DNA of 64,000 bases, from NCBI RefSeq assembly GCF_963921235.1, contig NC_086108.1:1922001-1986000 (forward strand). Direction: 5' to 3'. Source of the stretch: Mobula hypostoma (taxonomy: Eukaryota). How positions within the stretch are numbered: position 1 is the first letter of the stretch; every line of letters starts with the position of its first letter. Below the pieces are notes generated by a model. It did not search any database and was not told the DNA's origin. It saw only the letters and a program-made list of their open reading frames with translations. Positions 6,120-53,899 of this stretch are shown piece by piece. Position numbers and translations under genes: made by a program.

Positions 6120-6664
6120 GACTCTTAGTGTGTCTAATGAAATAAGTAATATGGGGGAGTGCTGGGACAATACAGATTCAGACCAGTGTATCTGATTCTG
6201 TTGAACTGTGTCCTTTGTCCTCAGCACAGACATCACTCTGACAACCATGGGTCAACACAGCCTCCTTAAAGAGCAACACACACAGCAGAGGAGGCAACAG
6301 ACTGACACGTCAGAAAAACACGTCAGTCTGTGTTAAAGAGCAAGTCCAATTTACTGTTAGAATGCTGCATTGAAGGTTCAGGATTGTTTCTCATCTGTAG
6401 CGGATACTGGAAAACAGAAAAAACCACTGAGAGGCTGCACAAGAACATTTTGAGTGGAGTCTTAAAAGAACTGTGTCTGTTGCTAAAGCTTTGTGTCCTT
6501 GTGAACATCCTGTGTTTTTCCAATTAAAATTCCTAGTCTGCATAACTAAGAGTTATAGTTCTGGGCAGAATCCCTCATTAAAGTGAAAACACAGGGGCAC
6601 AAATGCGATGAATGTAGACGGATGAGCCACAAATCAAGAAAAAAAAGACATTATGAACTAACTC

Positions 6665-6927
6665 AGACACGAGGAAATCTGCAGATGCTGGAAACTCAAG
6701 CAGCACACACACAATGCTGGTGGAACACAGCAGGCCAGGCAGCATCTCTAGGAAGAGGTACAGTCGACATTTCGGACCAAGACCCTTCGTCAGGACTAAC
6801 TGAAAGAGGAGATAGTAACTCTTCTTTCAGTTAGTCCTGACGAAGGGTCTCAGCCCGAAACGTCGACTGTACCTCTTCCTATGGACGCTGCCTGGCCTGC
6901 TGCATTCCACCAGCATTGTGTGTGTGC
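6665..6927. mobile_element. Penelope-derived fold-back element (two inverted 3' termini), 14-bp TSD
   Basis: Arms are reverse complements centred near 6813 and match the terminus of the PLEs at 17960, 45600-45741 and 46830. TTATGAACTAACTC at 6651-6664 and 6928-6941. Confidence 0.9.
6833..6869 (+). ncRNA. Minimal type I hammerhead ribozyme motif
   Basis: AGTC-CTGACGA-A-GGG TCTCAG CCC-GAAA-CG-TC-GACT: conserved core CUGANGA/GAAA/UH, stem I AGTC:GACT, palindromic ACGT in place of stem III. Confidence 0.7.
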
Positions 6928-7479
6928 TTATGAACTAACTCCTTTGTTCTGCTAAGGACACACAAGTTGCTACGAGATATAAAGACAAGCTTTTCCCTTG
7001 TACCTCAGAGTTCCACACTCGTGGATTGTCTGTGATATCATGCTAAAATAAAAGATTCACTGCTCGCAGTCTGGTATCGAGCTTCATTTTAAAATTCCCT
7101 GACAAAGGGACCCGACTCTCTTTGATGTGTTTCCAAATAATAACTTTCCAAATTGAAAAAGGTTCGTCCTTTATTACAAAAGCAGTAAAGACAAACAATC
7201 TTGTAACGATAACAAAACAATGAAACTAAATTAGCGATGTAATGGTCTAATATTAGTTTGAATAGCATAACTAGGCCTTCTAATAGCATTCCAACTAGCA
7301 ATCTAGTTAATGTTCCAATGAAGTCCCAATTAGCAATCAACAAAAAAATGATCATTTCCCTGACTCACCCCCCCAACTAGACTAACCGACTAAGTATGAA
7401 AACATAATTGCTGTGTGCTCATTTGCTTCTTCCGCGCCCCAACCCACGTGACAGATTACGTAATAAATGCACTACAAAC

Positions 7480-8122: not shown

Positions 8123-8411
8123 ATTTAATATCAGAGACTGTATCCAGTATACAGCCTGAAATTCTTACTCTTCACGGACAATTTAATATCAGAGACTGTA
8201 TCCAGTATACAGCCTGAAATTCTTACTCCTCACAGACAATTTAATATCAGAGACTGTATCCAGTATATAGCCTGAAATTCTTACTCTTCACGGACAATTT
8301 AATATCAGAGACTGTATATATTATACAGCCTGAAATTCTTATTCTTCACAGACAATTTAATATCAGAGACTGTATACAGTATGCCACCTGAAATTCATCT
8401 CTTCACAGACA
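8123..8411. repeat. 58-bp tandem repeat, 5 copies
   Basis: ATTTAATATCAGAGACTGTA... recurs at 8123, 8181, 8239, 8297, 8355. Confidence 0.95.
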
Positions 8412-10150: not shown

Positions 10151-10539
10151 TTTTACAGTACAGTGCTAATTTCATCCTTTACACAAACACAAGAGATTCT
10201 GCCGAGAGTGGAAAACAAAGGGCTGGAGGAACTCAGCAAGCAAGACAGCATCCATGGAGATGCAAAGGAGTTGACGCTTTGGACCAAGACACTCCATCAG
10301 GATTGGAAAGGAAGGGATCACAAGTTGTAGATTTGCCACTAGGAGTGCTACATCATTTTGTATATTTGGGAAGTACTCTCACACTCCCTTCAACGCCCAC
10401 CTACTGTTTCCCCATCTCCACTGCCTGCTGCACCCATTCATACACTCCTACAAACCAGCCAACAATCTACACTGTCCTTTCCTGTCAGATTCCACTGTCT
10501 GTGGCCCCCGTCACATCCACCTATCACCTCTCAGAATCG

Positions 10540-11210
10540 GTAACTATTCCCACTCTCCCTTCTCCATCAGATCACACCCCCTCACCTGGATCTACCCATC
10601 ACCCCCAGCTATTGTCACTATTGCCACTCTTTCTCCCTCTTTCAATCACTCCTCCTCTCCTGGACCCTCCCATCACCCCTCAGCCTCTGTCACTATTCCT
10701 ATTCTCCATTCTCCACGTGTCTATCACTCCTCCTAACCTGGATCCACCTATCACCTCCCAGACTCACCCTCCCTACCCCATCTGTCAATCAATCGCACTC
10801 TCCTGGATGCACCCATCACCTCTTAGCCCTTGTCACTATTCCCACACTCACTTCTGCGTCCGTATGTCACTTCTCCTCTCCTGTATCCACCCATCAACTT
10901 CCAGCCTCTGGCACTATTCCCACTCTCCCTTCTCCATGTCTCTATCACTCCTCCTCACCTGTATCATCCCACCACCTCCCAGCCTCTGTCACTATTCTTT
11001 GTCGTCCTTCTCCATCTGAGTATCACTCCTCCTCACCATGATCCACCATCTCCTCCCAACCTCTATCTCTATTCCCACTCTCCATTTCCATCTGCCTATC
11101 ACTCCTCCTCACCATGATCCACCATCTCCTCCCAGCCCCTGTCAATATTCCCAATCTCCCTTCTCCATGTCTATCACTGGCCCTCACCTGCATCCACCCA
11201 TCACCTCCTA
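10540..11210. repeat. Degenerate pyrimidine-rich tandem repeat (about 60-bp unit), probably from a PLE 3' region
   Basis: Recurring CTATCACTCCTCCTCACC-TGGATCCACCCATCACCTCCCAGCC...GTCACTATTCC. Confidence 0.6.
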
Positions 11211-11685
11211 CGTGTTGGCCTACTCCTTCTCTTCGCTCCCTTATATGAGCTATCTCCCCTCTACGTCTTCAATATTCGAAGTGCATTTATTATCACTGTA
11301 TACAAGCTTGATGTTCAGCTCCTTACAGGCATCATCTAAACATGGAAACACCATAGAACCCATTAAAATAAATAAGACTATCAAACACCCGATGTACAGA
11401 GAAAAATATATAATTGTACAAACGATACCAGTAACCAGGTATCATTCAGAACTGAAGTTGACAAAAGTAAGGCCACAGCTACCAAGCTAGATACCACTGC
11501 AGCCTGTCCTGGAGCCCGTTAGTTACAGGCCACGGCCTCAGTTCAGCGCAGAGACTAGTAAACCTCACAGTACCGTGAGCTGAACTGGCCCATTCCTCGC
11601 CTCTGGCCCCGTCACCCTGACCTTTTAAATCTAGCCTGGTGCTTAAATCGTTCAAACCTTTGGTCGTTCCGTGCTCTCAGGGCTG

Positions 11686-13206
11686 GACCCCACCGCCTCG
11701 ATTCACCTGTACCCAACCTTTCCAATTCAACATGCTCTGTGGCCTGGACCCTGCCGCCTCGATTCACCTGTACCCAACCTTTCCAATTCAACATGCTCTG
11801 TGGCCTGGACCCTGCTGCCTCGATTCAGCCTGTACCTGACTTTTCCAATTCAACATGCTCTGTGGCCTGGACCCTGCCGCCTCGATTCACCTGTACCCAA
11901 CTTTTCCAATTCAACATGCTCTGTGGCCTGGACCCTGCCGCCTCGATTCACCTGTTACCAACCTTTCCAATTCAACATGCTCTGTGGCCTGGACCCTGCT
12001 GCCTCGATTCAGCCTGTACCTGACTTTTCCAATTCAACATGCTCTGTGGCCTGGACCCTGCCGCCTCGATTCACCTGTTACCAACCTTTCCAATTCAACA
12101 TGCTCTGTGGCCTGGACCCTGCCGCCTCGATTCAGCCTGTACCTGACTTTTCCAATTCAACATGCTCTGTGGCCTGGACCCTGCCGCCTCGATTCACCTG
12201 TACCCAACCTTTCCAATTCAACATGCTCTGTGGCCTGGACCCTGCCGCCTCGATTCACCTGTTACCAACTTTTCCAATTCAACATGCTCTGTGGCCTGGA
12301 CCCTGCCGCCTCGATTCACCTGTACCCAACCTTTCCAATTCAACATGCTCTGTGGCCTGGACCCTGCCGCCTCGATTCAGCCTGTACCTGACTTTTCCAA
12401 TTCAACATGCTCTGTGGCCTGGACCCTGCTGCCTCGATTCAGCCTGTACCTGACTTTTCCAATTCAACATGCTCTGTGGCCTGGACCCTGCCGCCTCGAT
12501 TCACCTGTTACCAACCTTTCCAATTCAACATGCTCTGTGGCCTGGACCCTGCTGCCTCGATTCAGCCTGTACCTGACTTTTCCAATTCAACATGCTCTGT
12601 GGCCTGGACCCTGCTGCCTCGATTCAGCCTGTACCTGACTTTTCCAATTCAACATGCTCTGTGGCCTGGACCCTGCTGCCTCGATTCAGCCTGTACCTGA
12701 CTTTTCCAATTCAACATGCTCTGTGGCCTGGACCCTGCCGCCTCGATTCACCTGTTACCAACCTTTCCAATTCAACATGCTCTGTGGCCTGGACCCTGCT
12801 GCCTCGATTCAGCCTGTACCTGACTTTTCCAATTCAACATGCTCTGTGGCCTGGACCCTGCTGCCTCGATTCAGCCTGTACCTGACTTTTCCAATTCAAC
12901 ATGCTCTGTGGCCTGGACCCTGCCGCCTCGATTCACCTGTTACCAACCTTTCCAATTCAACATGCTCTGTGGCCTGGACCCTGCTGCCTCGATTCAGCCT
13001 GTACCTGACTTTTCCAATTCAACATGCTCTGTGGCCTGGACCCTGCTGCCTCGATTCAGCCTGTACCTGACTTTTCCAATTCAACATGCTCTGTGGCCTG
13101 GACCCTGCCGCCTCGATTCACCTGTTACCAACCTTTCCAATTCAACATGCTCTGTGGCCTGGACCCTGCCGCCTCGATTCAGCCTGTACCTGACTTTTCC
13201 AATTCA
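11686..13206. repeat. 61/62-bp minisatellite, about 25 units, with a higher-order 185-bp period
   Basis: Constant TTCCAATTCAACATGCTCTGTGGCCTGGACCCTG(C/T)GCCTCGATTCA plus three variant segments. Confidence 0.97.
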
Positions 13207-13334
13207 GCCTGGCACTTAAGTCGATGAAACCTCAGGTCTCTGCTCGCTCTTGGGCGCCGCATCACCTCATTTGTTCCACATCAAATTGCCTCCAAGGCCA
13301 AAGCAGCAATGACCAAACACTGCAACACAATAAA

Positions 13335-16300
13335 CATAGAAACATAGAAACATAGAAAACAGGTGCAGGAGTAGGCCATTCGGCCCTTCGAGCCTGCACC
13401 GCCATTTAATTATGATCATGGCTGATCATCCAACTCAGAACCCCGCCCCAGCCTTCCCTCCATACCCCCTGACCCCCATAGCCACAAGGGCCATATCTAA
13501 CTCCCTCTTAAATATAGCCAATGAACTGGCCTCAACAGTTTCCTGTGGCAGAGAATTCCACAGATTCACCACCCTCTGTGTGAAGAAGTTTTTCCTAATC
13601 TCGGTCCTAAAAGGCTTCCCCTCTATCCTCAAACTGTGACCCCTCGTTCTGGACTTCCCCAACATCGGGAACAATCTTCCTGCATCTAGCCTGTCCAATC
13701 CCTTTAGGATCTTATACGTTTCAATCAGATTCCCCCCTCAATCTTCTAAATTCCAACGAGTACAAGCCCAGTTCATCCAGTCTTTCTTCATATGAAAGTC
13801 CTGCCATCCCAGGAATCAATCTGGTGAACCTTCTTTGTACTCCCTCTATGGCAAGGATGTCTTTCCTCAGATTAGGGGACCAAAACTGCACACAATACTC
13901 CAGGTGTGGTCTCACCAAGGCCTTGTACAACTGCAGTAGTACCTCCCTGCTCCTGTACTCGAATCCTCTCGCTATAAATGCCAGCATACCATTCGCCTTT
14001 TTCACCGCCTGCTGTACCTGCATGCCCACTTTCAATGACTGGTGTATAATGACACCCAGGTCTCGTTGCACCTCCCCTTTTCCTAATCGGCCACCATTCA
14101 GATAATAATCTGTTTTTCTATTTTTGCCACCAAAGTGGATAACTTCACATTTATCCACATTAAATTGCATCTGCCATGAGTGTGCCCACTCACCCAACCT
14201 ATCCAAGTCACCCTGCATCCTCTTAGCATCCTCCTCACTGCTAACACTGCCACCCAGCTTCGTGTCATCCGCAAACTTGGAGATGCTGCATTTAATTCCC
14301 TCATCCAAGTCATTAATATATATTGTAAACAACTGGGGTCCCAGCACTGAGCCTTGCGGTACCCCACTAGTCACCGCCTGCCATTCTGAAAAGGTCCCGT
14401 TTATTCCCACTCTTTGCTTCCTGTCTGCTAACCAATTCTCCACCCACACCAATACCTTACCCCCAATACTGTGTGCTTTAAGTTTGCACACTAATCTCCT
14501 GTGTGGGACCTTGTCAAAAGCCTTTTGAAAATCCAAATATACCACATCCACTGGTTCTCCCCTATCCACTCTACTAGTTACATCCTCAAAAAATTCTATG
14601 AGATTCGTCAGACATGATTTTCCTTTCACAAATCCATGCTGACTTTGTCCGATCATTTCACCGCTTTCCAAATGTGCTGTTATCACATCCTTGATAACTG
14701 ACTCCAGCAGTTTCCCCACCACCGACGTTAGGCTAACCGGCCTATAATTCCCCGGTTTCTCTCTCCCTCCTTTTTTAAAAAGTGGGGTTACATTAGCCGC
14801 CCTCCAATCCTCAGGAACTAGTCCAGAATCTAACGAGTTTTGAAAAATTATCACTAATGCATCCACTATTTCTTGGGCTACTTCCTTAAGCACTCTAGGA
14901 TGCAGACCATCTGGCCCTGGGGATTTATCTGCCTTCAATCCCTTCAATTTACCTAACACCACTTCCCTACTAACATGTATTTCACTCAGTTCCTCCATCT
15001 CACTGGACCCTCTGTCCCGTACTATTTCTGGAAGATTATTTATGTCCTCCTTAGTGAAGACAGAACCAAAGTAATTATTCAATTGGTCTGCCATGTCCTT
15101 GCTCCCCATAATCAATTCACCTGTTTCTGTCTGCAGGGGACCTACATTTGTCTTTACCAGTCTTTTCCTTTTTACATATCTATAAAAGCTTTTACAGTCC
15201 GTTTTTATGTTCCCCGCCAGTTTTCTCTCATAATCTTTTTTCCCCTTCCTAATTAACCCCTTTGTCCTCCTCTGCTGAACTCTGAATTTCTCCCAGTCCT
15301 CAGGTGAGCCACTTTCTCTGGCTAATTTGTATGTTTCTTCTTTGGAATTGATACTATCCCTAATTTCTCTTGTCAGCCACGGGTGCACTACCTTCCTTGA
15401 TTTATTCTTTTGCCAAACTGGGATGAACAATTGTTTTTCATCCATGCAACCTTTAAATGCTTGCCATTGCATATCCACTGTCAATCCTTTAGGTGTCATT
15501 TGCCAGTCTATCTTAGCTAATTCACGTCTCATACCTTCAAAGTTACCCCTCTTTAAGTTCAGAACCTTTGTTTCTGAATTAACTATGTCACTCTCCATAT
15601 TAATGAAGAATTCCACCATATTATGGTCACTCTTACCCAAGGGGCCTCTCACGACAAGATCGCTAATTAACCCTTCCTCATTGCTCAAAACCCAGTCCAG
15701 AATAGCCTGCTCTCTAGTCGGTTCCTCGACTTGTTGGTTCAAAAAACCATCCCGCATACATTCCAAGAAATCCTCTTCCTCAGCACCTTTACCAATTTGG
15801 TTCACCCAGTCTACATGTAGATTGAAGTCACCCATTATAACTGCTGTTCCTTTATTGCACACATTTCTAATTTCCTGTTTAATACCATCTCCGACCTCAC
15901 TACTACTGTTAGGTGGCCTGTACAGAACTCCCACCAGCGTTTTCTGCCCCTTAGTGTTACGCAGCTCTACCCATATCGATTCCACATCTTCCCGGCTTAT
16001 GTCCTTCCTTTCTATTGCGTTAATCTCTTCTTTAACCAGCAACACCACCCCACCTCCCCTTCCTTCATGTCTATCCCTCCTGAATATTGAATATCCCTGA
16101 ACGTTGAGCTCCCATCCCTGGTCACCCTGGAGCCATGTCTCTGTGATCCCAACTATATCATAATCATTAATAACAAGCTGCACTTTCAATTCATCCACCT
16201 TATTACGAATGCTCCTTGCATTGACACACAAAGCCTTCAGGCGTTCTTTTACAACTCTTTTAGCCCTTGTAGAATTATGTTGAAAAGTGGCCCTTTTTAA

Positions 16301-16347
16301 TGCTTGCCCTGGATTTGTCGGCCTGCCACTTTTACTTTTCTCCTTTG
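13335..16347 (-). mobile_element. Young 5'-truncated CR1 LINE with near-intact ORF2 (APE endonuclease + RT)
   Basis: ORF 13721-16513: NARSIRNK, GITETWL, MGDFN, SDH (APE); YRPVSLTS, GVPQGSVLGP, FADD (RT). One extra base near 13730 shifts the C-terminus into ORF 13435-13698. (TTTCTATG)n tail at 13335-13358. Confidence 0.95.
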
Positions 16348-16558
16348 TAAAATGCTGGTGAACACAGCAGGCCAGGCAGCAATGACCAAACACTGCAACA
16401 CAATAAAATGCTGGTGAACACAGCAGGCCAGGCAGCAATGACCAAACACTGCAACACAATAAAATGCTGGTGAACACAGCAGGCCAGGCAGCAATGACCA
16501 AACACTGCAACACAATAAAATGCTGGTGAACACAGCAGGCCAGGCAGCAATGACCAAA
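16348..16558. repeat. 56-bp tandem repeat (about 3.7 copies), chimera of PLE terminus and flank
   Basis: AATGCTGGTGAACACAGCAGGCCAGGCAGC + AATGACCAAACACTGCAACACAATAA at 16351, 16407, 16463, 16519. Confidence 0.9.
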
Positions 16559-16570
16559 TAAATTGCCAGG

Positions 16571-16610
16571 ACAGTCCTGATGAAGGGTCTCGGCCCGAAA
16601 CGTCGACTGT
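16571..16610 (+). ncRNA. Minimal type I hammerhead ribozyme motif in a PLE terminus
   Basis: ACAGTC-CTGATGA-A-GGGT CTCG GCCC-GAAA-CG-TC-GACTGT; 6-bp stem I; predicted cleavage after C16604. Confidence 0.8.
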
Positions 16611-17049
16611 ACCTCTTCCTACAGACGCTGCCTGGCCTGCTGCGTTTACCAGGATTTTGTGTGTGTTGCTTAAACTTCCAGCATCTGCAGATTTTCTCGT
16701 GTTTGCATGACCAGACGCTGGCTCATTTCCCACTCCCATGGTACTTGGCCAGAATTCGAGTGTCTCTTTCCCTCCACAGATGCTGCCTGACCTGTTGAGA
16801 TCCTCTGGTATTTTGTCTGTTTCTACGTGTAATAGTTGTTTTGTATTGTCTGATTTTTCCAAAAGAATATGTGATTCCTAAAGTGCACTGTGATGTGTGA
16901 TCTGTATCAGCTGCTGCCCTGTCGGTATGTGTGAGTGACTGGGAATTCGGAGTGTTTACTGGTGTTGTTGCTGCTGTTTGTGTTCGATGCCTCAATATTC
17001 CGTTTCATATCAGGGCATACAATATAAACTGAAACACTTACAGCCAAGA

Positions 17050-17850: not shown

Positions 17851-17959
17851 CCGTTCAAAGCAGTTATTCAAATACTGCAGTATTCTTTATCGTCATGTGG
17901 TGGCGCCACTGTCACACATTGTCTCCATCCCTTGAACGAGGTCAGTGCATCATTGCTCC

Positions 17960-19896
17960 ATACATCAAAGTTGCTGGTGAACGCAGCAGGCCAGGCAGCA
18001 TCTATAGGAAGAGGTGCAGTCGACGTTTCAGGCCGAGACCCTTCGTCAGGACTAACTGAAGGAAGAGTGAGTAAGGGATTTGAAAGTTGGAGGGGGAGGG
18101 GGAGATGCAAAATGATAGGAGAAGACAGGAGGAGGAGGGATAGAGCCGAGAGCTGGACAGGTGATAGGCAAAAGGGGATACGAGAGGATCATGGGACAGG
18201 AGGTCCGGGAAGAAAGACGGGGGGGGGTGACCCAGAGGATGGGCAAGAGGTATATTCAGAGGGACAGAGGGAGAAAAAGGAGAGTGAGAGAAAGAATGTG
18301 TGCATAAAAAAGAGTAACAGCTGGGGTACGAGGGGGAGGTGGGGCCTAGCGGAAGTTAGAGAAGTCAGTGTTCATGCCATCAGGTTGGAGGCTACCCAGA
18401 CGGAATACAAGGTGTTGTTCCTCCAACCTGAGTGTGGCTTCATCTTTACAGTAGAGGAGGCCGTGGATAGACATGTCAGAATGGGAATGGGATGTGGAAT
18501 TAAAATGTGTGGCCACTGGGAGATCCTGCTTTCTCTGGCGGACAGAGCGTAGATGTTCAGCAAAGCGGTCTCCCAGTCTGCGTCGGGTCTCACCAATATA
18601 TAAAAGGCCACATCGGGAGCACCGGACACAGTATATCACCCCAGTCGACTCACAGGTGAAGTGATGCCTCACCTGGAAGGACTGTTTGGGGCCCTGAATG
18701 GTGGTAAGGGAGGAAGTGTAAGGGCATGTGTAGCACTTGTTCCGCTTACACGGATAAGTGCCAGGAGGGAGATCAGTGGGGAGGGATGGGGGGGACGAAT
18801 GGACAAGGGAGTTGTGTAGGGAGCGATCCCTGCGGAATGCAGAGAGAGGCGGGGAGGGAAAGATGTGCTTAGTGGTGGGATCCCGTTGGAGGTGGTGGAA
18901 GTTACGGAGAATAATATGTTGGACCCGGAGGCTGGTGGGGTGGTAGGTGAGGACCAGGGGAATCCTATTCCTAGTGGGGTGGTGGGAGGATGGAGTGAGA
19001 GCAGATGTACGTGAAATGGGGGAGATGCGTTTAAGAGCAGAGTTGATAGTGGAGGAAGGGAAGCCCCTTTCTTTAAAAAATGAAGACATCTCCCTCGTCC
19101 TAGAATGAAAAGCCTCATCCTGAGAGCAGATGCGGCGGAGACGGAGGAATTGCGAGAAGGGGATGGCGTTTTTGCAAGAGATAGGGTGAGAAGAGGAATA
19201 GTCCAGATAGTTGTGAGAGTCAGTAGGCTTATAGTAGACATCAGTGGATAAGCTGTCTCCAGAGACAGAGACAGAAAGATCTAGAAAGGGGAGGGAGGTG
19301 TCAGAAATGGACCAGGTAAACTTGAGGGCAGGGTGAAAGTTGGAGGCAAAGTTAATAAAGTTAACGAGTTCTGCATGCGTGCAGGAAGCAGCGCCAATGC
19401 AGTCGTCGATGTAGCGAAGGAAAAGTGGGGGACAGATACCAGAATAGGCACGGAACATAGATTGTTCCACAAACCCAACAAAAAGGCAGGCATAGCTAGG
19501 ACCCATACGGGTGCCCATAGCTACACCTTTAGTTTGGAGGAAATGGGAGGAGCAAAAGGAGAAATTATTAAGAGTAAGGACTAATTCTGCTAGACGGAGC
19601 AGAGTGGTGGTAGAGGGGAACTGATTAGGTCTGGAATCCAAAAAGAAGCGTAGAGCTTTGAGACCTTCCTGATGGGGGATGGAAGTATATAAGGACTGGA
19701 CATCCATGGTGAAAATAAAGCGGTGGGGGCCAGGGAACTTAAAATCATCGAAAAGTTTAAGAGCGTGAGAAGTGTCACGAACATAGGTCGGAAGGGATTG
19801 AACAAGGGGTGATAAAACAGTGTCGAGGTATGCAGAAACGAGTACGACAACAATTGTCTCAGCTTGCTCCTGCCCCACCGAACTCGTTTCTGCATA
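17960..19896 (-). mobile_element. Penelope-like element (Neptune-type), 5'-truncated: RT + GIY-YIG endonuclease, hammerhead motif at 18018-18053
   Basis: ORF 18346-19926: MDVQSLYTSIP, GVAMGTRMGPSYA, RYIDD, Cys-rich linker PCKRNKCYTC, VIYCVRCSRCGLLYIGET. The first ~28 aa of the listed ORF come from the inverted segment and flank. Confidence 0.93.
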
Positions 19897-20285
19897 GTAC
19901 AACACAGTACAGGCCCTTCGGCCCACAATGTTGCGCCGACTCTCAAACCCTGCCTCCCATATAAGCCCCCACCTTAAATTCCTCCATATACCTGTCTAGT
20001 AGTCTCACTGAGAGTCCGAGAGTCATAGAAAAGTACAGCACAGAACGGGACCTTCAGCCCATCTAGTCTGTGCAGAACCATTTAAACTGCCTACTCCCAT
20101 CGATTTGCACCAGGCGCATAACCTTCCATGTATCTATTCAAACTCCTCTTAAACGTTGAAATCGAACTTACATGCACCACTTGTGCTGGCAACTCGTTCC
20201 ACACTCTCACCACCCTTTGAGTGAATAAATTTCCCCCCATGTTCCCCTTAAACCTATCACCTTTCACCTTTAACTCATGGACCAC
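19897..20285 (-). mobile_element. Two short CR1 3'-end fragments
   Basis: Reverse complements of CR1 3' UTR (GTGGGCCGAAGGGCCTGTACTGTG) and FTQRVVRVWNELP. Confidence 0.65.
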
Positions 20286-23850: not shown

Positions 23851-25479
23851 CCACAGCCGCAGAGCCAGTCTGGTGCTGCAGGTGGACCAGATTAGTCCTG
23901 ATGTGAATAAACCTCAAAGAAAAGTGAGCTGAAACTGATTTGTGCTGCGCCCTCAGCCCCGATGCCCAACACTTTCAATTACTGTACTTAAATCAGCCAA
24001 ATTTCAGTTTGTTTTTTTCCCTTCGGGCTCGAGAACTACAGTTCAATCCAGCCCCAGCTCCACTCCAGCAACTGGCACCATGCCACACCTGCACCTTCGA
24101 GAGTCCAGTCCACCGAATCACCCAGGACTCCGCCAAAAAGGCCGGGCTCCCAAAGAGAAGCCAGCGGCTGCAGATTGCAGTGACTGCAGTCCAGGAAAAG
24201 GGTCATCAATAGAATAGCTAGGAGTTTCGTTTGCTGCCTGTAAAGCATCCCTGTGTCTCGCCAGTGCCACCATGGTAGCATAACAGCTAGCCTGACGCGG
24301 TTGCAGCTCGGAGTGTCCCGGAATTCAGAGATCAGCCTGGGTGCCGTTCTGTAAGGAGCCAGTTGCTTCCGGATGAAAGTGTCTGAGTGTGACGGTCTCT
24401 TTCTGCCTCTCTCTCACTGTTCCCAGAGGAAAGTCCTTGTGTTCCAATGGTCTCTCTGTCTCCCCCCACCGCCGCCCCCGATGCTTTTGGAGGATGGTGC
24501 CGGAGGACGGAGCCCTGGGTCTGGTTTAATCGATGCAGTTTGTGGACTGGATTCTGTAGTTCACATTAGGATGAGTTTTCGGTTTGTGGTCACTCTCTTT
24601 TTGTTGCTATTCTGTGTGATTTTGAATGGGGGCAGCCTGCAGATAACGAATGGCACAGCACCAGACTGGACTGAACTGAGCTGAACTTAGTATGCCTGGA
24701 CTCTCTCGATGAGTTTGTGGTTCTGTGTTTTGTTACCTGTTTTTCACTGTTTTTTTTACCGTTTGCGCGACTTGTTTTTTCGTGCGTATGTGGGAGGGGG
24801 TTTACGGCTGCCATGCTTTTCTGTGTTTCATAGCTGTCTGTGGGAAGATGAAGCTTAGGGTCGTGTCCCTTCATACAGACTTTGATCAATCCTTTCAAAT
24901 TCTGAACCTCCTCCCTGTGGAATGTGTGTGTCTTCTCCGGGTGCTCCTGCTTCCTCCCACGTTTGGGTAGATTAATTTGGTCATTGTAAATAATTCTGAG
25001 ATTAGGCTAGGCTTAACTGGGTTTGTTGGTGATGGCTGGGGTGGTGTGGCTTGAAGTGCCAGAGGGCCGACTCTGCACTGTATCGCTAAATAAAATAAAC
25101 AGAGCTGAGGCAACTTCGATGGTGGGAAATTAACAGTCAGCGATTCTGGCCAAGACCCTTCGTCATGAGTCCTGATGGCCTGTAACGTCCACTGTTTATT
25201 CCTCTCTGAGGCGAGGTCCTCTTTTTACAAGCAATTGCAACACTGTACCAGCAGAGGGAGCAATGAGCTCACTTTAAACAATAAACACAAGTGATTTCAG
25301 ATGGTGGAATCGGAAAATCTGACTCTGAAAGAAGAAATAACTGGCTGGAGGAGCTCAGCAGGTCAAACGGCATCTGTAGGGGAAGGAATTACCAGGAAGG
25401 TCCTCATACAGGGTTCAACGATTCCCTTTCTCCCAGAAATTATGCGGATTGATTGGCTGCTTCAGAGGCTGGTATACAG

Positions 25480-25815
25480 TACAACCAAGAAGGACGCTAC
25501 TTTAACTGGGACACCGCAGACTAGGCAAACACCAGAATATTTAGAAGCGTGGTTCTCTTCTGATAACTCTGTAAACAAACATATTGAAATAAACACCATT
25601 ATCGAACCCCTGAGACCCAAAGAAATGCGAGCTAACTGGATGATTGAACAATCAGGACCGGGGCAAGTGAACGGAGGTGGGAGGGAGGGGGCATATAAAC
25701 TCAAATGCTCCCAGAGAGAAACACCAACAACTGTGCACTGAGGACATCATCTCAACTGGTGATGAAACGTCCGCAAGCTAATTGTCAAGCTCGGTGGCCA
25801 GTGAAACATCCAACG
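25480..25815 (+). mobile_element. 3' end of a second Penelope family (Poseidon-like)
   Basis: EYLEAWFSSDNSVNKHIEINTIIEPLR resembles a PLE GIY-YIG C-terminus and is followed by a hammerhead motif. Confidence 0.6.
25734..25775 (+). ncRNA. Minimal hammerhead ribozyme motif (second family)
   Basis: TGCA-CTGAGGA-C-ATCATC TCAACT GGTGAT-GAAA-CG-TC-CGCA; stem I has one mismatch. Confidence 0.6.
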
Positions 25816-26508: not shown

Positions 26509-28797
26509 AAATGTGCAGGAAGCTGCAGATCGTAGTGGACTGAGCTCAGTACCTCCCTCCCCACTCAGTGGTATCTTAAGCAGGAGCTGCCTCCATCATA
26601 TCTTCTTGCAGCTCTGGAGGTAGAGGCCCAAAAGTTGAGGTTGTAAGTCTGGGCCAGAGATGGGAGGTTGGAGACCGGATGTTTGTGAGGTTGAAAGTCC
26701 AAGGCCAAGGGCTAGAGGCCCTGAGGCAGCCTGTCTGTGTGTGTCACGGGACACAGACAAGTGGGTCACAGTCAGGAGGGGAAAGGGGAAGAGTCAAGTA
26801 CCAGAGAGTACCCCTGTGGCTGTCCCTCTTAACAATAAGTACTCCTGTTTGAGTACTGTTGGGGGGGGACAGCCTACCTGGGGGAAGCAACAGTGGCCGT
26901 GCCTCTGCCACAGAGTCTGGCCCTGTGGCTCAGAAGGGTAAGGAAAGGAAGAGGATGGCAGCAATGATAGGGGACTCTATAGTTAGGGGGTCAGACAGGC
27001 GATTCTGTGGACGCAGGAAAGAAACTCGGATGGTAGTTTGCCTCCCAGGTGCCAGGGTCTGGAATGTCTCAGATCGCGTCCAAGATATCCTGCAGTGGGA
27101 GGGAGAACAGCCAGAGGTAATGGTACATATTGGTTCCAATGACATAGGTAGGAAAAGGGAAGGAGGTCCTGAAAACAGACTACAGGGAGTTAGGAAAGAA
27201 GCTGAGAACCAGAACCACAAGGGTAGTAATCTCGGGATTACTGCCTGTGCCATGTGACAGTGAGAGTAGGAATAGAGTGAGGTGGAGGATAAATGCGTGG
27301 CTGAGGGATTGGAGCAGGGGGCAGGGATTCAGATTTCTGGTTCATTGGGACCTCTTTTGATGGATTGCACTTGAATCCCAGAGAGACCAAGATCCTGGCG
27401 GGAAGGTTTGCTAAGGCTACTGGGGAGAGTTTAAACTAGAATTGCTGGGGGGTGGGAACCGAACTGAAGAGACGGAGGAAGAGGCGGTTGGCTCACAAAT
27501 AGAGAAAGCTTGGAGACAGTGTGAGAGGGAGAATAGGCAGGTGATAGAGAAGGGTCGCGCTCAGACTGAAGGTTTGAGATGTGTCTATTTTAACGCAAGG
27601 AATGTTAAAGCGGATGAGCTTAGTATTTGGATCAGTATTTGGAGATATGATGTGGTGGCCATTACAGAGACTTGGATGTCTCAGAGGCAGGGATGGTTAC
27701 TTCAAGTGCCAGGTTTTAGATGTTTCAGAAAGGACAGGGAGGGAGGCAAAAGAGGTGGGGGTGTGGCACTGTTGATCAGAGATAGTGTCATGGCTGCAGA
27801 AAAGGTGGACACCATGGAGGGATTGTCTACGGAGTCTCTGTGGATGGAGGTTAGGAACAGGAAGGGGTCAATAACTTTACTGGGTGTTTTTTTATAGACC
27901 ACCCGATAGTAACAGGGATATCGAGGAGCAGATAGGGAAACAGATCCTGGAAAGGAGTAATAATAACAGGGATGTTGCGGTGGGAGATTTTAATTTCCCA
28001 AATATGGATTGGCATCTCCCTAGAGCAAGGGTTTTAGGATGGGGTGGAGTTTGTTAGGTGTGTTCAGGAAGGTTTCCTGACACAATATGTAGATAAGCCT
28101 ACAAGAGGAGAGGCTGTGCTTGATCTGGTATTGGGAAATGAACATGGTCAGGTGTCAGATCTCTCAGTGGGAGAGCATTTTGGAGATAGTGATCACAATT
28201 CTATCTCCTTTACGATAGCATTGGAGAGAGATAGGAACAGACAAGTTAGAAAAGCGTTTAATTGCAGTAAGGGGAATTATGAGGCTATCAGGCAGGAAAT
28301 TGGAGGCTTAAATTGGAAACAGATGTTCTCAGGGAAAAGTACAGAAGAAATGTGGCAAATATTCAGAGGATATTTGTGTGGAGTTCTGCATAGGTACGTT
28401 CCAATGAGACAGGGAAGTTATGGTAGGGTACAGGAACCGTGGTGTACAAAGGCTGTAATAAATCTAGTCAAGAAGAAAAGAAAAGCTTACAAAAGGTTCA
28501 GAGAGCTAGGTGATGTTAGAGATCAAGGAGATTATAAGGCTAACAGGAAGGAGCTCAAGAAGGAAATTAGGAGAGCCAGAAGGGTCCATGGGAAGGACTT
28601 GGCAGGCAGGATTAAGGAAAACCCCAAGGCATTCTACAATTATGTGAAGAGCAAGAGGATGGCTGGAGTGGCTGAGTTGGCTTGACTGGAAGCTGGCTGT
28701 GTTTTGCTTGATGCCTGAATGTGGTTCGGAACCTGTTGAGGGAAAGAGAGTGGGGAAGGAACGGAAATTGCTGGGAGGGGGTCGTGTGGGTCCGGTA

Positions 28798-33000: not shown

Positions 33001-33487
33001 AAAGAGGGCGTTAAAGAAAGAAAATGTGGAAATGCACATTAGTATCAGTAAAGCAGAGGTTAAGTGTGTAATCTGGGAAAAAGTCAACCGAATGTGGCAA
33101 GAAAGATGGGACGGGAAGGGGAAAGGGAGGCATTTATATCAAATACAAAAGAGTGTTGCAGTTACTAGGGTAGGTAATGGATACAGAAGAGAGGAAACTG
33201 TGTGGACTAGGTTAAGGCTGGGGCACTGTGCATTAAACAAAACATTGAAAATGATAGAGAAACACCAGACAGGATTGTGTGAGGAATGTCAGGAAGAGGA
33301 GTCAGTAGAACATGTAGTTCTGAGTTGCAGGAAGTATGGGATACAGAGAGAGATGATGAGAAATAAATTAAGGGAGTTGGGGATGCAGGAATTCACATTA
33401 AAAGGGTTGCTGGGCATGGGTGAGAGAGCACAAGTCCAGGTATTTTTAGCGTTTTTAAGGGGTACAGGGGTTTTTTATAGAATATGA
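30018..33487 (+). pseudogene. LINE ORF2 (APE-RT-RNase H-Cys motif), disrupted
   Basis: LQWN, IQETW, ADFNAH, GSDH; YRPIALTS, GTPQGSVIS, FADN; IYTDGAK, SDS, WVPAHVGVKGNERVDELAK; RLRLGH..CEEC..H..C. In-frame TAG at 31515 and a frameshift near 32800. Confidence 0.9.
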
Positions 33488-40170: not shown

Positions 40171-42264
40171 TTGCAAACTACAGTTTCCGTGGTAAAATTC
40201 TTGATTGTCAGTTCTCCACCTTCATTTACTTGGACATATTTTATTATTTACTACTGAACTTAAACTGCTGCAGTTTCTTATCCAAATGTTTACCTCCTGT
40301 TAAATGTAAACAGACACCATCAAAACACTCCCTGGATAGCAGCACCCTCCCTGCGGGGTGTCCCAAGTGACTCAGCTGATAATGAGAAGAATTTAAAACA
40401 ATTAACTTTGAGGGAATGTCCTGGGTTGCATTCTGCACGCTGGCCTGAGTCACCATTTGTGAAATGGGAAACTGATTGTGCTTTGCATTTTTGCACGCTG
40501 AGTCCCTGGGGGTTGTACACAGGAATAGGAATGTACACGTAAACCGGCCGTGCCTGGGCATGACCAGAGGCCAGGAGGAAGCCAATTCTAACAGGGGCTG
40601 GGCTGACCAACCCCACCATTGCTGGAGAGTGTGGAGGTTACAGACTCATACAGCACAGAAACTGGCCCTTTGGCCCAAATGGTCCATGCTGACTTACATT
40701 CAGAGTCAGGTTTAATATCACTGAACTGACACACAAAATGCTGGGGGAGCTCAGCATCGATGGAGAGAAATAGACAGTTGACTGGATCAGATTTGGGCCG
40801 AGACCCTTCATCATCATCATCTAAGTTAGTCTTATTTGCTCGCATTTGGTCCATATCCCTCTCAAGTTGAGCCATGGACCAAAACCATAAAGCAAGGAGT
40901 TGATGGGCCCAAGGTTGGGCACCCCTGCTCCAAACCTTCCCGATCCATATGTCTGCCTCAGCCAGCTCATTCCAAATACACACCGCTCTCTGGGTGAACA
41001 AATCTCTCCCTAATCACCTTTAAACCTGTGAGCTCCAGTTCTTGATTCCAGGCCTGGGGTAAAGACTGTGTGCTTTCACCCTTAGTGGTTTTATACACCT
41101 TCAGAGATGCACACCTCTGAATCCTATGCTCCAAGGAAAACGGTCCCAACCTGCTCAAGAAAACCCTCTTCAGCACACAGCTGGGTTTTTAATTTTGTTA
41201 AAGCTGGTGGTGGTAATGGGGATAAGCTCCCACTACCTACTAAATGCTCCCAATGACGTGCACCTCAAATAGCCTCTGACAACCAGCTCCTGGCCTTCAC
41301 GTGAGCCCGACAGAACCATTTCTACTGACGAGGGGTGTTACTGGCACTTTAAAACCAGTCACTTCGGGCAGATGGGGCTCATCAGCCGTGGTTGCCAGCT
41401 CAACCAGGAAAAGGAAAACTGACTGGCAACTCCTGCGACACCGCTCGTGCCAAGCTGTTCTGGTCTCTACTGTTCCTTTGGGTTCACCAGCTGTGTGGAG
41501 AAGGGGAGTTTGCTATGTGGGCAACAGCTTGCTCTCCATATCGAACTGCCCTGGCTTGTGTATCTAGACAGTTAGGATGCAACGTCCGTGGTCGACCCTG
41601 ACTGATGTAGGCCTTTGAGTTCCAACAACATTAAAAAAAGAAAAATTAATATTGACCATTGTTACAAAAACCACAAGGTTCAACAACAGCTTCTTCCCTA
41701 CCACCATCGGGTCTTGCACTGATCTGCAAACAAGTCCTGATGAAGGGTCTCAGCCCAAAATACCGGCTGTTTAGTTCTTTCCATAGATGCTACCCAAGCT
41801 AATGAGCTCCTCCAGCATTTTGTGTATGTTACTGTAAGGAGAAGTTAAATGTGATTCCTCCCTGGTACATGCTAAAATGCAATGGAAGTCTGTAAGGTGA
41901 AGTGCTGTTCGCCTGGAGTGGGATTGTTCGGAGAAAGTACACAGGAACCAATCCGCAGCAATGTTTTGAGAAAGTTAAGGGAGTTCAAGTCTATAGCCAT
42001 AACAGTGGAAAATGGTGCAATTCATGTTTTTTCACCGCAAGGCAAGGTCTTTGTGCAGGAGCAGGTACCAACTGCATGGAAAAGTACCAGTGTAAGGGGT
42101 TTTAAGAGGTAGAATTGGGGACCTCCTTGTTGCAAGAGAAGAGAGTTTTGTCCAAGGCTAGGTCACAGCTTGTGACTAGTGCTATGATAAGGAACAGTAC
42201 ATCGAAGAGAGTCAGAGTACATCGAATTGGAGTTAGACGGACTTGGAGAGAGGAGAGGCTGCGT

Positions 42265-42790: not shown

Positions 42791-42851
42791 AGACCATGAT
42801 GAGTATTATTTTCATTTCTGTACTGCTACTATTTACTACTGTAGAGATTTA

Positions 42852-43092
42852 AGCAACACACATCAAAGTTGCTGGTGAACGCAGCAGGCCAGGCAGCATC
42901 TCTAGGAAGAGGCACAGTCGACGTTTCAGGCCGAGACCCTTCGAAGGTCTGAATGAGTCCCGATGAAGGGTCTCGGCCCGAAACGATGACTGTACCTCTT
43001 CCTAGAGATGCTGCCTGGCCTGCTGCGTTCACCAGCAACTTTGATGTGTGTTGCTTGAAATTCCAACATCTGCAGAATTCCTGTTGTTTGCG
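42852..43092. mobile_element. Penelope-derived fold-back element, 14-bp TSD (1 mismatch)
   Basis: Inverted arms centred near 42950; ACTGTAGAGATTTA (42838-42851) and ACCGTAGAGATTTA (43093-43106). Confidence 0.88.
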
Positions 43093-43180
43093 ACCGTAGA
43101 GATTTATTTTATTTTAGTGTTGTATTTGTGCTAGTTCTATTAAAGAGTATTCTTGTGGCCTTGAACACATGTGTCATCTC

Positions 43181-45741
43181 AAGCAACACACATCAAAGTT
43201 GCTGGTGAACGCAGCAGGCCAAGCAGCATCTCTAGGAAGAGGTACAGTCAACGTTTCGGGCCGAGACCCTTCATCGGGACTAACTGAAGGAAGAGTGAGT
43301 AAGGGATTTGAAAGCTGGAGGGGGAGGGGGAGATGCAAAATGATAGGAGAAGACAGGAGGGGGAGGGATAGAGCCGAGAGCTGGACAGGTGATAGGCAAA
43401 AGGGGATACGAGAGGATCATGGGACAGGAGGTCCGGGAAGAAAGATGGGGGGGGGTGGTGACCCAGAGGATGGGCAAGAGGTATATTCAGAGGGACAGAG
43501 GGAGAAAAAGGAGAGTGAGAGAAAGAATGTGTGCATAAAAATGAGTAACAGATGGGGTACAAGGGGGAGGTGGGGCATTAGCGGAAGTTAGAGAAGTCAA
43601 TGTTCATGCCATCAGGTTGGAGGCTACCCAGACGGAATATAAGGTGTTGTTCCTCCAACCTGAGTGTGGCTTCATCTTTACAGTAGAGGAGGCCGTGGAT
43701 AGACATGTCAGAATGGGAATGGGATGTGGAATTAAAATGTGTGGCAACTGGGAGATTCTGCTTTCTCTGGCGGACAGAGCGTAGATATTCAGCAAAGCGG
43801 TCTCCCAGTCTGCGTCGGGTCTCACCAATATATAAAAGGCCACATCGGGAGCACCGGACGCAGTATATCACCCCAGTCGACTCACAGGTGAAGTGATGCC
43901 TCACCTGGAAGGACTGTTTGGGGCCCTGAATGGTGGTGAGGGAGGAAGTGTAAGGGCATGTGTAGCACTTGTTCCGCTTACACGGATAAGTGCCAGGAGG
44001 GAGATCAGTGGGGAGGGATGGGGGGGACGAATGGACAAGGGAGTTGTGTAGGGAGCGATCCCTGCGGAATGCAGAGAGAGGGGGGGAGGGAAAGATGTGC
44101 TTAGTGGTGGGATCCCGTTGGAGGTGGCGGAAGTTACGGAGAATAATATGTTGGACCCGGAGGCTGGTGGGGTGGTAGGTGAGGACCAGGGGAACCCTAT
44201 TCCTAGTGGGGTGGCGGGAGGATGGAGTGAGAGCAGATGTACGTGAAATGGGGGAGATGCGTTTAAGAGCAGAGTTGATAGTGGAGGAAGGGAAGCCCCT
44301 TTCTTTAAAAAATGAAGACATCTCCCTCGTCCTAGAATGAAAAGCCTCATCCTGAGAGCAGATGCGGCGGAGACGGAGGAATTGCGAGAAGGGGATGGCG
44401 TTTTTGCAAGAGACAGGGTGAGAAGAGGAATAGTGACTCTCACAGCTATCTGGACTATTCCTCTTCTCACCCTATCTCTTGCAAAAACGCCATCCCCTTC
44501 TCGCAATTCCTCCGTCTCCGCCGCATCTGCTCTCAGGATGAGGCTTTTCATTCTAGGACGAGGGAGATGTCTTCATTTTTTAAAGAAAGGGGCTTCCCTT
44601 CCTCCACTATCAACTCTGCTCTTAAACGCATCTCCCCCATTTCACGTACATCTGCTCTCACTCCATCCTCCCACCACCCCACTAGGAATAGGGTTCCCCT
44701 GGTCCTCACCTACCACCCCACCAGCCTCCGGGTCCAACATATTATTCTCTGTAACTTCCGCCACCTCCAACGGGATCCCACCACTAAGCACATCTTTCCC
44801 TCCCCCCCTCTCTCTGCATTCCGCAGGGATCGCTCCCTACACAACTCCCTTGTCCATTCGTCCCCCCCATCCCTCCCCACTGATCTCCCTCCTGGCACTT
44901 ATCCATGTAAGCGGAACAAGTGCTACACATGCCCTTACACTTCCTCCCTTACCACCATTCAGGGCCCCAAACAGTCCTTCCAGGTGAGGCATCACTTCAC
45001 CTGTGAGTCGACTGGGGTGATATACTGCGTCCGGTGCTCCCAATGTGGCCTTTTATATATTGGTGAGACCCGACGCAGACTGGGAGACTGCTTTGCTGAA
45101 CATCTACGCTCTGTCCGCCAGAGAAAGCAGAATCTCCCAGTGGCCACACATTTTAATTCCACATCCCATTCCCATTCTGACATGTCTATCCACGGCCTCC
45201 TCTACTGTAAAGATGAAGCCACACTCAGGTTGGAGGAACAACACCTTATATTCCGTCTGGGTAGCCTCCAACCTGATGGCATGAACATTGACTTCTCTAA
45301 CTTCCGCTAGGCCCCACCTCCCCCTCGTACCCCATCTGTTACTCTTTTTTATGCACACATTCTTTCTCTCACTCTCCTTTTTCTCCCTCTGTCCCTCTGA
45401 ATATACCTCTTGCTCATCCTCTGGGTCACCCCCCACCCCCCCATCTTTCTTCCCGGACCTCCTGTCCCATGATCCTCTCGTATCCCCTTTTGCCTATCAC
45501 CTGTCCAGCTCTTGGCTCTATCCCTCCCCCTCCTGTCTTCTCCTATCATTCTGGATCTCCCCCTCCCCCTCCCACTTTCAAATCCCTTACTCACTCTTCC
45601 TTCAGTTAGTCCTGACGAAGGGTCTCGGCCTGAAACGTCGACTGCGCCTCTTCCTAGAGATGCTGCCTGGCCTGCTGCGTTCACCAGCAACTTTGATGTG
45701 TGTTGCTTGAATTTCCAGCATCTGCAGAATTCCTGTTGTTT
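43181..45741. mobile_element. 2.56-kb fold-back Penelope insertion (two inverted copies of the GIY-YIG/3' half), 14-bp TSD
   Basis: ORFs 43578-44321(-) and 44567-45310(+) are near-identical 247-aa products; symmetry centre about 44433-44452; ACATGTGTCATCTC at 43167-43180 and 45742-45755. Confidence 0.95.
45608..45643 (+). ncRNA. Minimal hammerhead ribozyme motif in PLE 3' terminus
   Basis: AGTC-CTGACGA-AGG GTCTCGG CCT-GAAA-CG-TC-GACT. The same motif lies on the minus strand at 18018-18053 and 46931-46966. Confidence 0.75.
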
Positions 45742-46829
45742 ACATGTGTCATCTCCCTTTGTTTGCGAATATTTGGGAGAAAACCCTGAAATGAACCAGG
45801 AAAGAACACATGGTGAATTTTTAAATCATTTTTGTTTACAGTTACATTATTGTGGAATGCATCTCTGTGATCTAGTGTTGTTGTATTTATTCTGTTGTGT
45901 AACTTTTGTTAATGTAGGTTTATATTTGTAATGTGCTGTTGCTGCTGCAGAAAAGCTCATTAACATGCCGTTTATACCTTGGCGATAAACTTGTACTTGA
46001 AATGTAGCCAGTTCACCAATAAATTCTGCAACTAAAATATTTTAACGTTGGTCCCTTGTTCCTTTCTGATTCATCACCAAGAGGTTTCCACAAACAAAGG
46101 AGGCACTGTACACATGGAAAATGCTGTAAGAAATCACTTTAATAGTTATATAAAGAATGTAGAAAGAAAGAGAGTTAATAATGTTAAAAGATAAAATTAT
46201 ACTATCAACCAGTTCCCTAAGCCACTACACACAATGACCTGCCAGACGGAACTGCAGATGCCAACAGGTTTTCTACACACTTTCTCTCTCTCTGCCTCTC
46301 TCTCCCCTCTTTCTTTCCCTCTCTCTCCCCTCTTTCTTTCCCTCTCTCTCTTCCCCCTCCCTCTTTTTCTGTCTCTCGGTCTCTCCTCTCTCACTCACTC
46401 TCTTTCTCTCTGCCTGTCTGTCTCTCAGTCTCTCGAAGTCCTTATTGCCAGCTCTTACCATTAGTCACAATCCTGCCTAAAGGAAGATAACCCCTTGTAC
46501 AAAGAAATCGCCCCTTTTTATACCCTCCAATACCGTTTTCTCGAATCCTTTTCCAGACAAATACAATTGTCACCATTATCTACTCTCAAGGCTGTACACT
46601 GGCACTCACTCTCAGTTCTCTGAACAAGGCTGAGGTCTGGTTCCCTTGTACTTTCTCAAAACATTCCCACGTCCCAGACTAACACCAATTTGTCTAACAA
46701 CTTCCATTTTGTGTTACACATTTTCACATTTGACCATATTCCAAAGAGGAGTCGAATTTAACTCTTTCCTTACAAATGCGCAACAGGTCAGGCAGCAACT
46801 CTGGAAAGAAAGCCAACATCTCGATACAT

Positions 46830-47815
46830 CGCAAACACGAGGAAATCTGCAGATGCTGGAAATTCAGGCAACACACATCAAAGTTGCTGATGAACGCAGC
46901 AGGCCAGGCAGCATCTCTAGGAAGAGGTACAGTCGACGTTTCAGGCCGAGACCCTTCGTCAGGACTAACTGAAGGAAGAGTTAGTAAGAGATTTGAAAGT
47001 TGGAGGGGGAGGGGGAGATCCAAAATGATAGGAGAAGACAGGAGGGGGAGGGATGGAGCCAAGAGCTGGACAGGTGATTGGCAAAAGGAATACGAGAGGA
47101 TCATGGGACAGGAGGCCCAGGGAGAAGGAAAAGGGGGAGGGGGGGAAAATCCAGAGGATGGAGAGCAGGCAAGGAGTTATAGCGAGAGGGGCAGAGGGAG
47201 AAAAAAGAGAGAGAGGAAAAAGGGGGGGGGGGAATAAATAAATAAATAAATAAATAATGGATGGGGTACGAAGGGGATTAATGGAAGTTTAAGAAGTCAA
47301 TGTTCATGCCATCAAGTTGGAAGCTACCCAGACAGAATATAAGGTGTTGTTCCTCCAACCTGAGTGTGGCTTCATCTTTACAGTAGAGGAGGCCGTGGGT
47401 AGACATGTCAGAATGGGAATGGGATGTGGAATTAAAATGTGTGGCCGCTGGGAGATCCTGCTTTCTCTGGCGGACAGAGCGTAGGTGTTCAGCAAAGTGG
47501 TCTCCCAGTCTGTGTCGGGTCTTGCCAATGTATAGAAGGCTGCATCGGGAGCACCAGACGCAGTATATCACCCCAGTCGACTCACAGGTGAAGTGTCGCC
47601 TCACCTGGAAGGACTGTTTGGGGCCCTGAATGGTGGTAAGGGAGGAAGTGTAAGGGCATGTGTAGCACTTGTTCCGCTTACAAGGGTAAGTGCCAGGAGG
47701 GAGATCAGTGGGGAGGGATGGGAGGGATGAATGGACAAGGGAGTCGCGTAGGGAGTGATCCCCGGGGAAAGCAGAAAGAAGGGAGGAGGGAAAGATGTGC
47801 TTAGTGGTGGAATCC
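46830..47815 (-). mobile_element. 5'-truncated Penelope element (GIY-YIG + 3' terminus)
   Basis: ORF 47278-47604 VIYCVWCSRCSLLYIGKT; possible TSD CTCGATACAT/CTTGATACAT (46820-46829, 47816-47825). Confidence 0.88.
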
Positions 47816-48024
47816 CTTGATACATTGGTTTATTATGGTCACATGTACCAAGAACAGAGAAAAATTGTCATCCATACAGATCATATCAACACAGCCATTC
47901 GCTGAGGTAGTACAAGAAATGGGAAACAATAACAGAATGCAGAATAAGTGTTACGGTCACAGAGGAAGTACAGTGCAGGCAGACAGTAGGGTCAAAGTCA
48001 TAATGAGATAAATTGTGAGGTTAA

Positions 48025-53400: not shown

Positions 53401-53899
53401 CGTCCTTCACAGGACACCGAAAGAATTACCAATGCTAAAATTAGCCCCTTCCTCCCTCGTAGCCTGGATTAACCCACCACAGGCCTATCAAGCATCTGCT
53501 TTGGGATCATGCTTTGCAAACTTCCCGCCAAGACCAGTGCCATCATCAAACAAGAGGGTGGAACCCAGCGGGTCTGTGGAGGGACACGGACAGTCGTCTA
53601 CAGATGCTGCCCAACCTGCTGAGTTTTCAAGCCTGTGCTTTGCTCAGGATAACCACCATAAACTGCAGGTGTTGGAAACCTTGGGCAACACGCACTAACC
53701 ACTCAGCAGGTCAGGCAGCATCAATGGAGAGAGTAAACTGTGGTCGTTTCCAGCTGGGACCCTTCCTCAGGACTGGAAGCAGAGGGGGAAGAAGTAGAAA
53801 CAGAAAGGCGGACTCTTCACAGACCTCTGTAGATGCTGCCTGACCTGACGGGCATTTTGTGTGTGCTGCTCCTGGTTCTCAGCAATTGCGAGATCTCTC

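Follow-up and report, generated by a model that had tools for sequence, protein, structure and literature searches.

The window considered here, a 64-kb stretch of Mobula hypostoma DNA (contig NC_086108.1) analysed at its full length, contains fragments of a Penelope-like element (PLE), and one terminal-repeat (pLTR) fragment of this element displays a minimal type I hammerhead motif at positions 16571-16610 of the forward strand. The motif, its carrier copies, and the related fold-backs are distributed as follows:

16571..16610 (+): minimal type I hammerhead motif, with a 6-bp stem I, the full core, and a 4-bp stem II closed by G10.1-C11.1; helix III is absent
16573..16706 (+): short solo pLTR fragment with a long tail and no ORF; its start lies at the 5′ edge of stem I, its end ~102 nt past the predicted cut
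16349..16549 (-): inverted left arm, a 56-bp tandem array without a ribozyme, spanning only ~+22 to +64 past the cut
17959..19845 (-): 5′-truncated PLE, putatively Neptune-type, with the stop at 18346, a ~300-nt pyrimidine-rich UTR, an intact hammerhead (core 18049-18022), and a short tail
46830..47817 (-): 3′ end of a 5′-truncated PLE, with an intact hammerhead (core 46962-46935) and a long tail
41733..41833 (+): older, decayed short pLTR fragment with G12A and U16.1C
6664..6928 (no strand assigned): head-to-head fold-back of two pLTR fragments (cores 6793- and 6837+), with one long and one short tail and a 14-bp target-site duplication
42851..43093 (no strand assigned): head-to-head fold-back A, whose left arm is without the CTGA half of the core and whose right arm has U4C and U16.1A, with an 11-bp target-site duplication
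43179..45743 (no strand assigned): head-to-head fold-back B, two ~1.25-kb arms that are 97.7% identical and hold PLE endonuclease fragments, with a 14-bp target-site duplication
Other old fragments: 2403-, 10304-, 25108-25206, 40814-, 50737+, 51600-51876, 53783-, and 58039+

Architecture and Copies of the Motif

The 5′ strand of stem I (16571-16576) is followed by the core CTGATGA (16577-16583), stem II with its loop (16585-16596), GAAA (16597-16600), CG, TC (16603-16604), and the 3′ strand of stem I (16605-16610), with the predicted cut at 16604/16605. Between A9 and stem II lies one extra unpaired A at 16584 (A9a), which was missing from the preliminary description of this DNA. Stem III is indeed reduced to the palindrome ACGT, as that description had it; the palindrome is present in all five intact copies and dimer pairing is possible. 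Helix I has 5-6 bp and helix II 4 bp in the intact copies, pair 10.1-11.1 is G-C at 16577+ and 6837+ and G-U at the other three, and the extra A between 9 and 10.1 is found in 16/16 aligned copies. Six of the eight young copies retain the full set of 11 core positions together with the extra base and the palindrome.

The pattern CTGANGA-N7..20-GAAA-S-N-T-H occurs six times in the window, whereas 100 dinucleotide shuffles gave a mean of 0.23 and a maximum of 2; five of the six are the copies named in the preliminary description (cores 6837+, 16577+, 18049-, 45612+, and 46962-; the minus-strand numbers 18018 and 46931 first given are the low coordinates of those copies). The five fit a minimal type I hammerhead in the places where they had been reported, while the sixth match, at 25738, belongs to a different sequence family. 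A structure-aware descriptor that includes stem II returned seven sites (shuffle mean 0.105, maximum 1, 200 shuffles), namely the same five copies, 6793-, and 25738+, whereas the Rfam covariance scan found no hammerhead family among 35 matches with E up to 10; the Rfam models presumably expect helix III. Rfam matches to microRNA families over the fold-backs, with scores far under the gathering thresholds, were discarded as hairpin artefacts. The four copies described as decayed also exist: 6793- keeps all 11 core positions, with C15.2U and a weaker stem II, 41733 carries G12A and U16.1C, 42960+ carries U4C and U16.1A, and 43277- carries U4C. The proposal that minimal type I hammerheads built to need a dimer lie in PLE terminal repeats is supported, and the motif is a real member of a published hammerhead class, new only as a ray family. 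All copy counts refer to the 64-kb window.

The Carrier Element

The PLE ORF at 18349-19995 (-) encodes a reverse transcriptase (RT) with YIDD, a CX4CX2C linker, and a GIY-YIG domain with CCHH (two Cys and two His). Pfam matches to RVT_1 (E=4.6e-5) and GIY-YIG (E=4.8e-4) both fall below the Pfam cut-offs; the ORF has 1026 homologues at E<=1e-20, and its PLE-homologous part spans 19842 to 18358. The best labelled relatives of the protein are from Mobula hypostoma (88-93% identity) and Hypanus sabinus (78-87%), followed by sharks (62-71%). A CX2-5CxxC linker between RT and endonuclease is described in PMC8557442 as a Neptune trait that is absent in Penelope and Poseidon, and the carrier seems to be a Neptune-type PLE, an assignment made by the linker and CCHH traits. 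The hammerheads 18049-, 43277-, 45612+, and 46962- sit ~300 nt after the end of the PLE ORF, and 16577+ is a solo fragment of the same terminal repeat, 86-92% identical to the other copies.

Three database proteins, P0001, P0004, and P0022, are named after host genes yet consist largely of PLE ORF. In P0022, from the zebra shark, the UTR is read through into a peptide that resembles a translation of the hammerhead region, which hints that the motif may occupy an equivalent place in sharks.

Other Repeats in the Window

A second minimal hammerhead with a 6-bp stem II, an extra C, and the ACGT palindrome lies in 25431-25795 (+), with its core at 25738; the first pair of its stem I is mismatched, and the motif follows the end of a decayed ORF. 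This ORF remnant had no Pfam match and no homologue, and the Atlas gave a weak GIY-YIG lead for it (0.83, 17% of members); the element looks like another PLE family.

The 56-bp array at 16349-16549 has a further partial unit at ~13303-13334, to the left of a LINE that has inserted into the array. This young, 5′-truncated LINE (13335-16347, -), which we take to be CR1-like from its traits, comprises endonuclease and RT, stays open for ~870 codons, and ends in an 8-bp microsatellite tail. A 965-aa stop-to-stop frame, considered as a fusion gene, was rejected, since it is the LINE frame reading on into the 56-bp array. Another LINE, at 28038-33487 (+), contains a zinc knuckle, endonuclease, RT, and RNase H and is interrupted by stops. 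Tandem arrays occupy 8123-8411 (~58 bp), 10515-11208 (~76), 11672-13206 (~61), and 55703-56165 (~95).

Predicted Folding and Conservation

In the predicted fold of the five intact copies, G5-A6-Y7-G8 pairs with C15.2-G16.2-U16.1-C17 to give a closed rod, 2.2-4 kcal/mol below the open core; for the 16571 copy, this rod has a frequency of 0.64 and z = -1.9. An active dimer can be drawn in which stems I are swapped and ACGU forms a 4-bp helix, but two rods are preferred by the energy model, in which tertiary contacts are left out (for 16577+, dimer -23.3 vs two rods -28.8 kcal/mol). When three long copies were folded in their own UTR context, the probability P of stems I and II was 1e-3 to 1e-5. 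According to these models, the monomer is likely to be dormant or inactive on its own, and the predictions would agree with weak, assisted cleavage.

Core conservation is modest. Matching cells in 16 copies number 151/173 in the core, 112/128 in stem II, 106/115 in stem I, 153/208 in the spacer, and 263/294 in the tail motif; the core lies above the adjacent spacer (P=0.0009) and not above the tail motif (P=0.55), in a comparison that is weak, the copies being kin to one another and having been retrieved by homology. In the eight old copies alone, core vs spacer gives P=0.32, and U4C occurs in three of the 16 copies. The copy 25738+, with the same core, extra base, and palindrome but a different stem II, would offer better support for core conservation than this tally.

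Insertion Ends and the Predicted Cut

It had been proposed that cleavage after GTC defines the RNA end, and for the RNA that was inserted this is not supported. A ribozyme-only profile has 19 matches, 18 of which continue past the cut into the downstream repeat (two of these for only 17-28 nt), and the exception, 51751-, breaks exactly at C17 and, after ~79 foreign bases, resumes at +20. In the 16 aligned copies, which were selected to span the motif, the 3′ ends lie at +61 to +75 (six copies), +102 to +104 (seven), +88 to +90 (two), and +28 (one), so that ribozyme-bearing copies mostly reach ~+63 or ~+103 nt past the cut. These are the two tail ends known for PLEs. Contigs of runs X1 and X5, from two studies, have heterogeneous loose ends at the equivalents of +102 to +106 and, in X5, also of +66, and none at the cut, among the 24 of 2428 rows listed; such contigs cannot display RNA ends. 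Since the copies run past the cut, the insertion template was either uncut or religated, and insertions made from a circle formed by cutting and religation would look the same in the DNA as those from an uncut template.

For an anole PLE, PMC11167929 describes reverse transcription from two internal start sites, both lying downstream of the ribozyme. There, the ribozyme cleaves only with protein present, core mutants insert normally, cleavage being dispensable for insertion in vitro, and no RNA-seq reads are reported to begin or end at the cut.

Among candidates that were dropped, an apparent 9-bp target-site duplication at 51.7 kb was ruled out, since the left arm continues. The 84 tail-motif loci in metagenomes contained no hammerhead with the repeat (best profile 18.6 bits) and were put down to chance, and a tail-motif scan of viral contigs gave 0 loci.

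Head-to-Head Fold-Backs

Seven fold-backs were inspected (6664-6928, 16349-16706, 25108-25206, 42851-43093, 43179-45743, 51600-51876, and 53659-53894), and all seven are head-to-head, i.e., joined at their 5′ ends. In three of them, the ends can be placed by target-site duplications (14, 11, and 14 bp), and each of the four young ones has one long and one short tail. An inverted 5′-truncated copy with a tail on one end, head-to-head being the commonest arrangement, is described for PLEs in PMC8557442 and PMC3846280. The statement that each strand of a fold-back carries a ribozyme is correct for 6664-6928 and for 43179-45743, where one arm has U4C (cores 43277-, with U4C, and 45612+, intact), and fails for the 16571 copy and for 42851-43093. 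In the old fold-back 51600-51876, the left arm is the one interrupted at C17 by ~79 foreign bases, and the right arm has lost stem II via a deletion between two short direct repeats.

Fold-backs A and B, which have separate target-site duplications, are 85 bp from each other, and their variants are crossed: the right arm of A and the left arm of B share U4C, U7, C11.1, and U17, while C7, U11.1, C17, and G at +7 are common to the left arm of A and the right arm of B. Such crossing suggests that each insertion drew on two different RNA templates or that gene conversion took place.

The preliminary description also suggested that the fold-backs could act as a co-transcriptional switch, in which the ribozyme would have a brief time to cut until an antisense arm made later silences it. 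However, as the 5′ ends of the arms are joined, transcription reaches the antisense arm first on either strand, and the ribozyme would be masked from the moment of its synthesis. In read-through RNA of the three arms tested (6837+, 6793-, and 42960+), P of stems I and II is ~1e-21 to 1e-44 from 6 nt past the cut, in equilibrium foldings at growing lengths that include the inactive rod and are not kinetic simulations, and for fold-back B a duplex of 213 bp between its ends is predicted, at -448 kcal/mol. A transcript from the centre of fold-back 6664-6928 does behave in the direction of a switch, with P peaking at 0.56-0.72 just past the cut and then falling to 0.001-0.006; nevertheless, for a monomer without helix III this time window would be insufficient unless a partner were present. 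The ribozyme-first order is found only between separate insertions, namely 16577+ and 18049- (~1.3 kb), 45612+ and 46962- (~1.1 kb), and 42960+ and 43277-, and with 29 fragments tallied in 64 kb such opposite-strand neighbours would be expected. Moreover, the arms display random decay, with no sign of selection on their arrangement. A switch within the fold-backs is not supported by the order of the arms or by the predicted folds, and as an explanation of the motif it seems highly improbable. In the 16571 copy, the inverted arm misses the ribozyme; P of the stems is 0.69-0.92 with the arm and 0.005-0.23 without it at >=30 nt past the cut.

The 5′ Edge of the Motif

From the 29 fragments, nine that reach, or seem to reach, further upstream were set aside, and in ten of the remaining 20 the truncated 5′ start falls in a 9-base interval at the stem I 5′ edge (16573, 25168, 25170, 40814, 41733, 42956, 50737, 51753, 51755, and 58039), while one of the 20 starts within 4 bases of the cut. 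The pile-up has a naive P=3e-5, for an interval picked after viewing the starts, starts read by hand, and fold-back partners that are non-independent; moreover, old subfamilies with another UTR could mimic truncation in this tally. Fold-back junctions account for six of the ten starts, and a short duplication flanks two.

The pile-up could be caused by a hairpin in the cDNA at which synthesis terminates, by a transcription start, or by a splice acceptor at this place. On a tentative reading, to which only a rather low probability is given, the hairpin, or a transcription start or splice acceptor at its 5′ edge, would set the cDNA stop and the joining site of fold-backs; the motif would then contribute to insertion by its structure, as a boundary, rather than by cleavage. 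At 45586-45611 (+) and 46990-46963 (-), a branch-point-like word, a pyrimidine tract, and an AG lie directly upstream of stem I and overlap it, which we take as a possible splice acceptor or initiator. The splice-acceptor idea itself was dropped, as no supporting joint was present among the 15 listed of 451 and no donor was convincing.

Relation to Known Elements

The minimal hammerhead defined for metazoan PLEs (Cervera and De la Pena 2014, PMC4209133) is described there as a type I motif with helix III absent, palindromic 15.2-16.2, an extra base at 9/10.1, a short helix I, and a pLTR location, mostly in solo copies of truncated elements, and in all these traits the ray motif is the same. 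It differs in a helix II of 4 bp instead of the 7-8 bp of the Schistosoma families and in G-U at 10.1-11.1 in three of the five intact copies. Its opening parts name no cartilaginous fish; they report opposite-strand pairs 100-700 bp apart, uncleaved monomers, and weakly cleaved dimers, and the dimer model, including the dimer cleavage of Lunse et al., is reviewed in PMC6765202. The function of PLE hammerheads is termed unclear in PMC8557442.

As in Poseidon PAc of Anolis carolinensis (Frangieh et al. 2024, PMC11167929), the ray hammerhead lies upstream of two preferred insertion ends, the tail is on one end, and insertions span the cut site; in contrast with PAc, the ray element has the cysteine linker of Neptune, which is absent in Poseidon. 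With the Neptune-clade insertion units described in PMC8557442 and PMC3846280 it shares the C-terminal GIY-YIG with CCHH, CX2-5CxxC, strong 5′ truncation, the adjacent inverted copy, the one-sided tail of 30-40 bp, and target-site duplications, and it differs from them in that no full-length or tandem pLTR-ORF-pLTR copy lies within the 64-kb window. Animal non-LTR retrozymes (bioRxiv 10.64898/2026.07.22.740005) likewise carry type I hammerheads derived from PLE repeats and are reported in one chondrichthyan genome, but they are head-to-tail arrays with a ribozyme per unit, whereas the only related array here (56 bp) is without one. No array of at least two consecutive tandem units with a complete hammerhead in each, by which retrozymes are recognized, is present in the window. 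The literature search, in main texts, returned no paper on this ray family (figures or supplements may list cartilaginous-fish motifs), two exact strings from the window matched no paper in it, and a look-up by sequence gave no look-alike.

Proposed Mechanism and Alternatives

The reading that probably accounts best for the locus is that of a minimal type I hammerhead in the repeat of a Neptune-type PLE, dormant when single, whose insertions arise from uncut RNA. The reverse transcriptase would start ~63 or 103 bases downstream of the cut and copy straight through it, and the copies in the window would be 5′-truncated dead ends, with the fold-back ribozymes masked as soon as they are made. By analogy with published PLEs, weak cleavage would need two copies pairing via the ACGU palindrome, e.g., in a tandem source transcript, or the help of an element protein, and would trim tandem transcripts while remaining dispensable for insertion.

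The same intact motifs inside insertions would also be obtained if both hammerheads of a tandem transcript were cleaved, the product were closed into a circle by religation, and reverse transcription then ran over the junction, as proposed in PMC4209133 and PMC6765202, and the copy that breaks exactly at the cut (51751-) is what a cut template might give. However, among the 20 truncated copies just one has its 5′ start no more than 4 nt from the cut, and circular templates are considered rather unlikely. Less likely still, the motif may be a catalytically dead relic, kept by overlap with a promoter, a splice acceptor, a protein-binding hairpin, or an ORF start. Conservation of the core does not exceed that of the tail motif, three of 16 copies have U4C, stems I and II have a P of only 1e-3 to 1e-5 in their own UTR context, and a branch-point-like word, a pyrimidine tract, and an AG lie just upstream, all of which would suit a relic, as would the Drosophila virilis intron that ends at helix I according to PMC4209133. 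Nevertheless, six of the eight young copies keep every core position together with the extra base and the palindrome, the unrelated element at 25738 retains the core with another stem II, a natural U4C variant is reported to keep enough activity in vivo (PMC3088659), and no GT..AG joint is found among the 15 joints listed of 451. Uncut templates copied through a hammerhead that is dormant on its own remain the favoured explanation.

The motif adds a ray family to the published class of PLE hammerheads. Moreover, if the pile-up of 5′ starts at the edge of stem I holds genome-wide, the motif may have a role in insertion that is not proposed in the cited papers.
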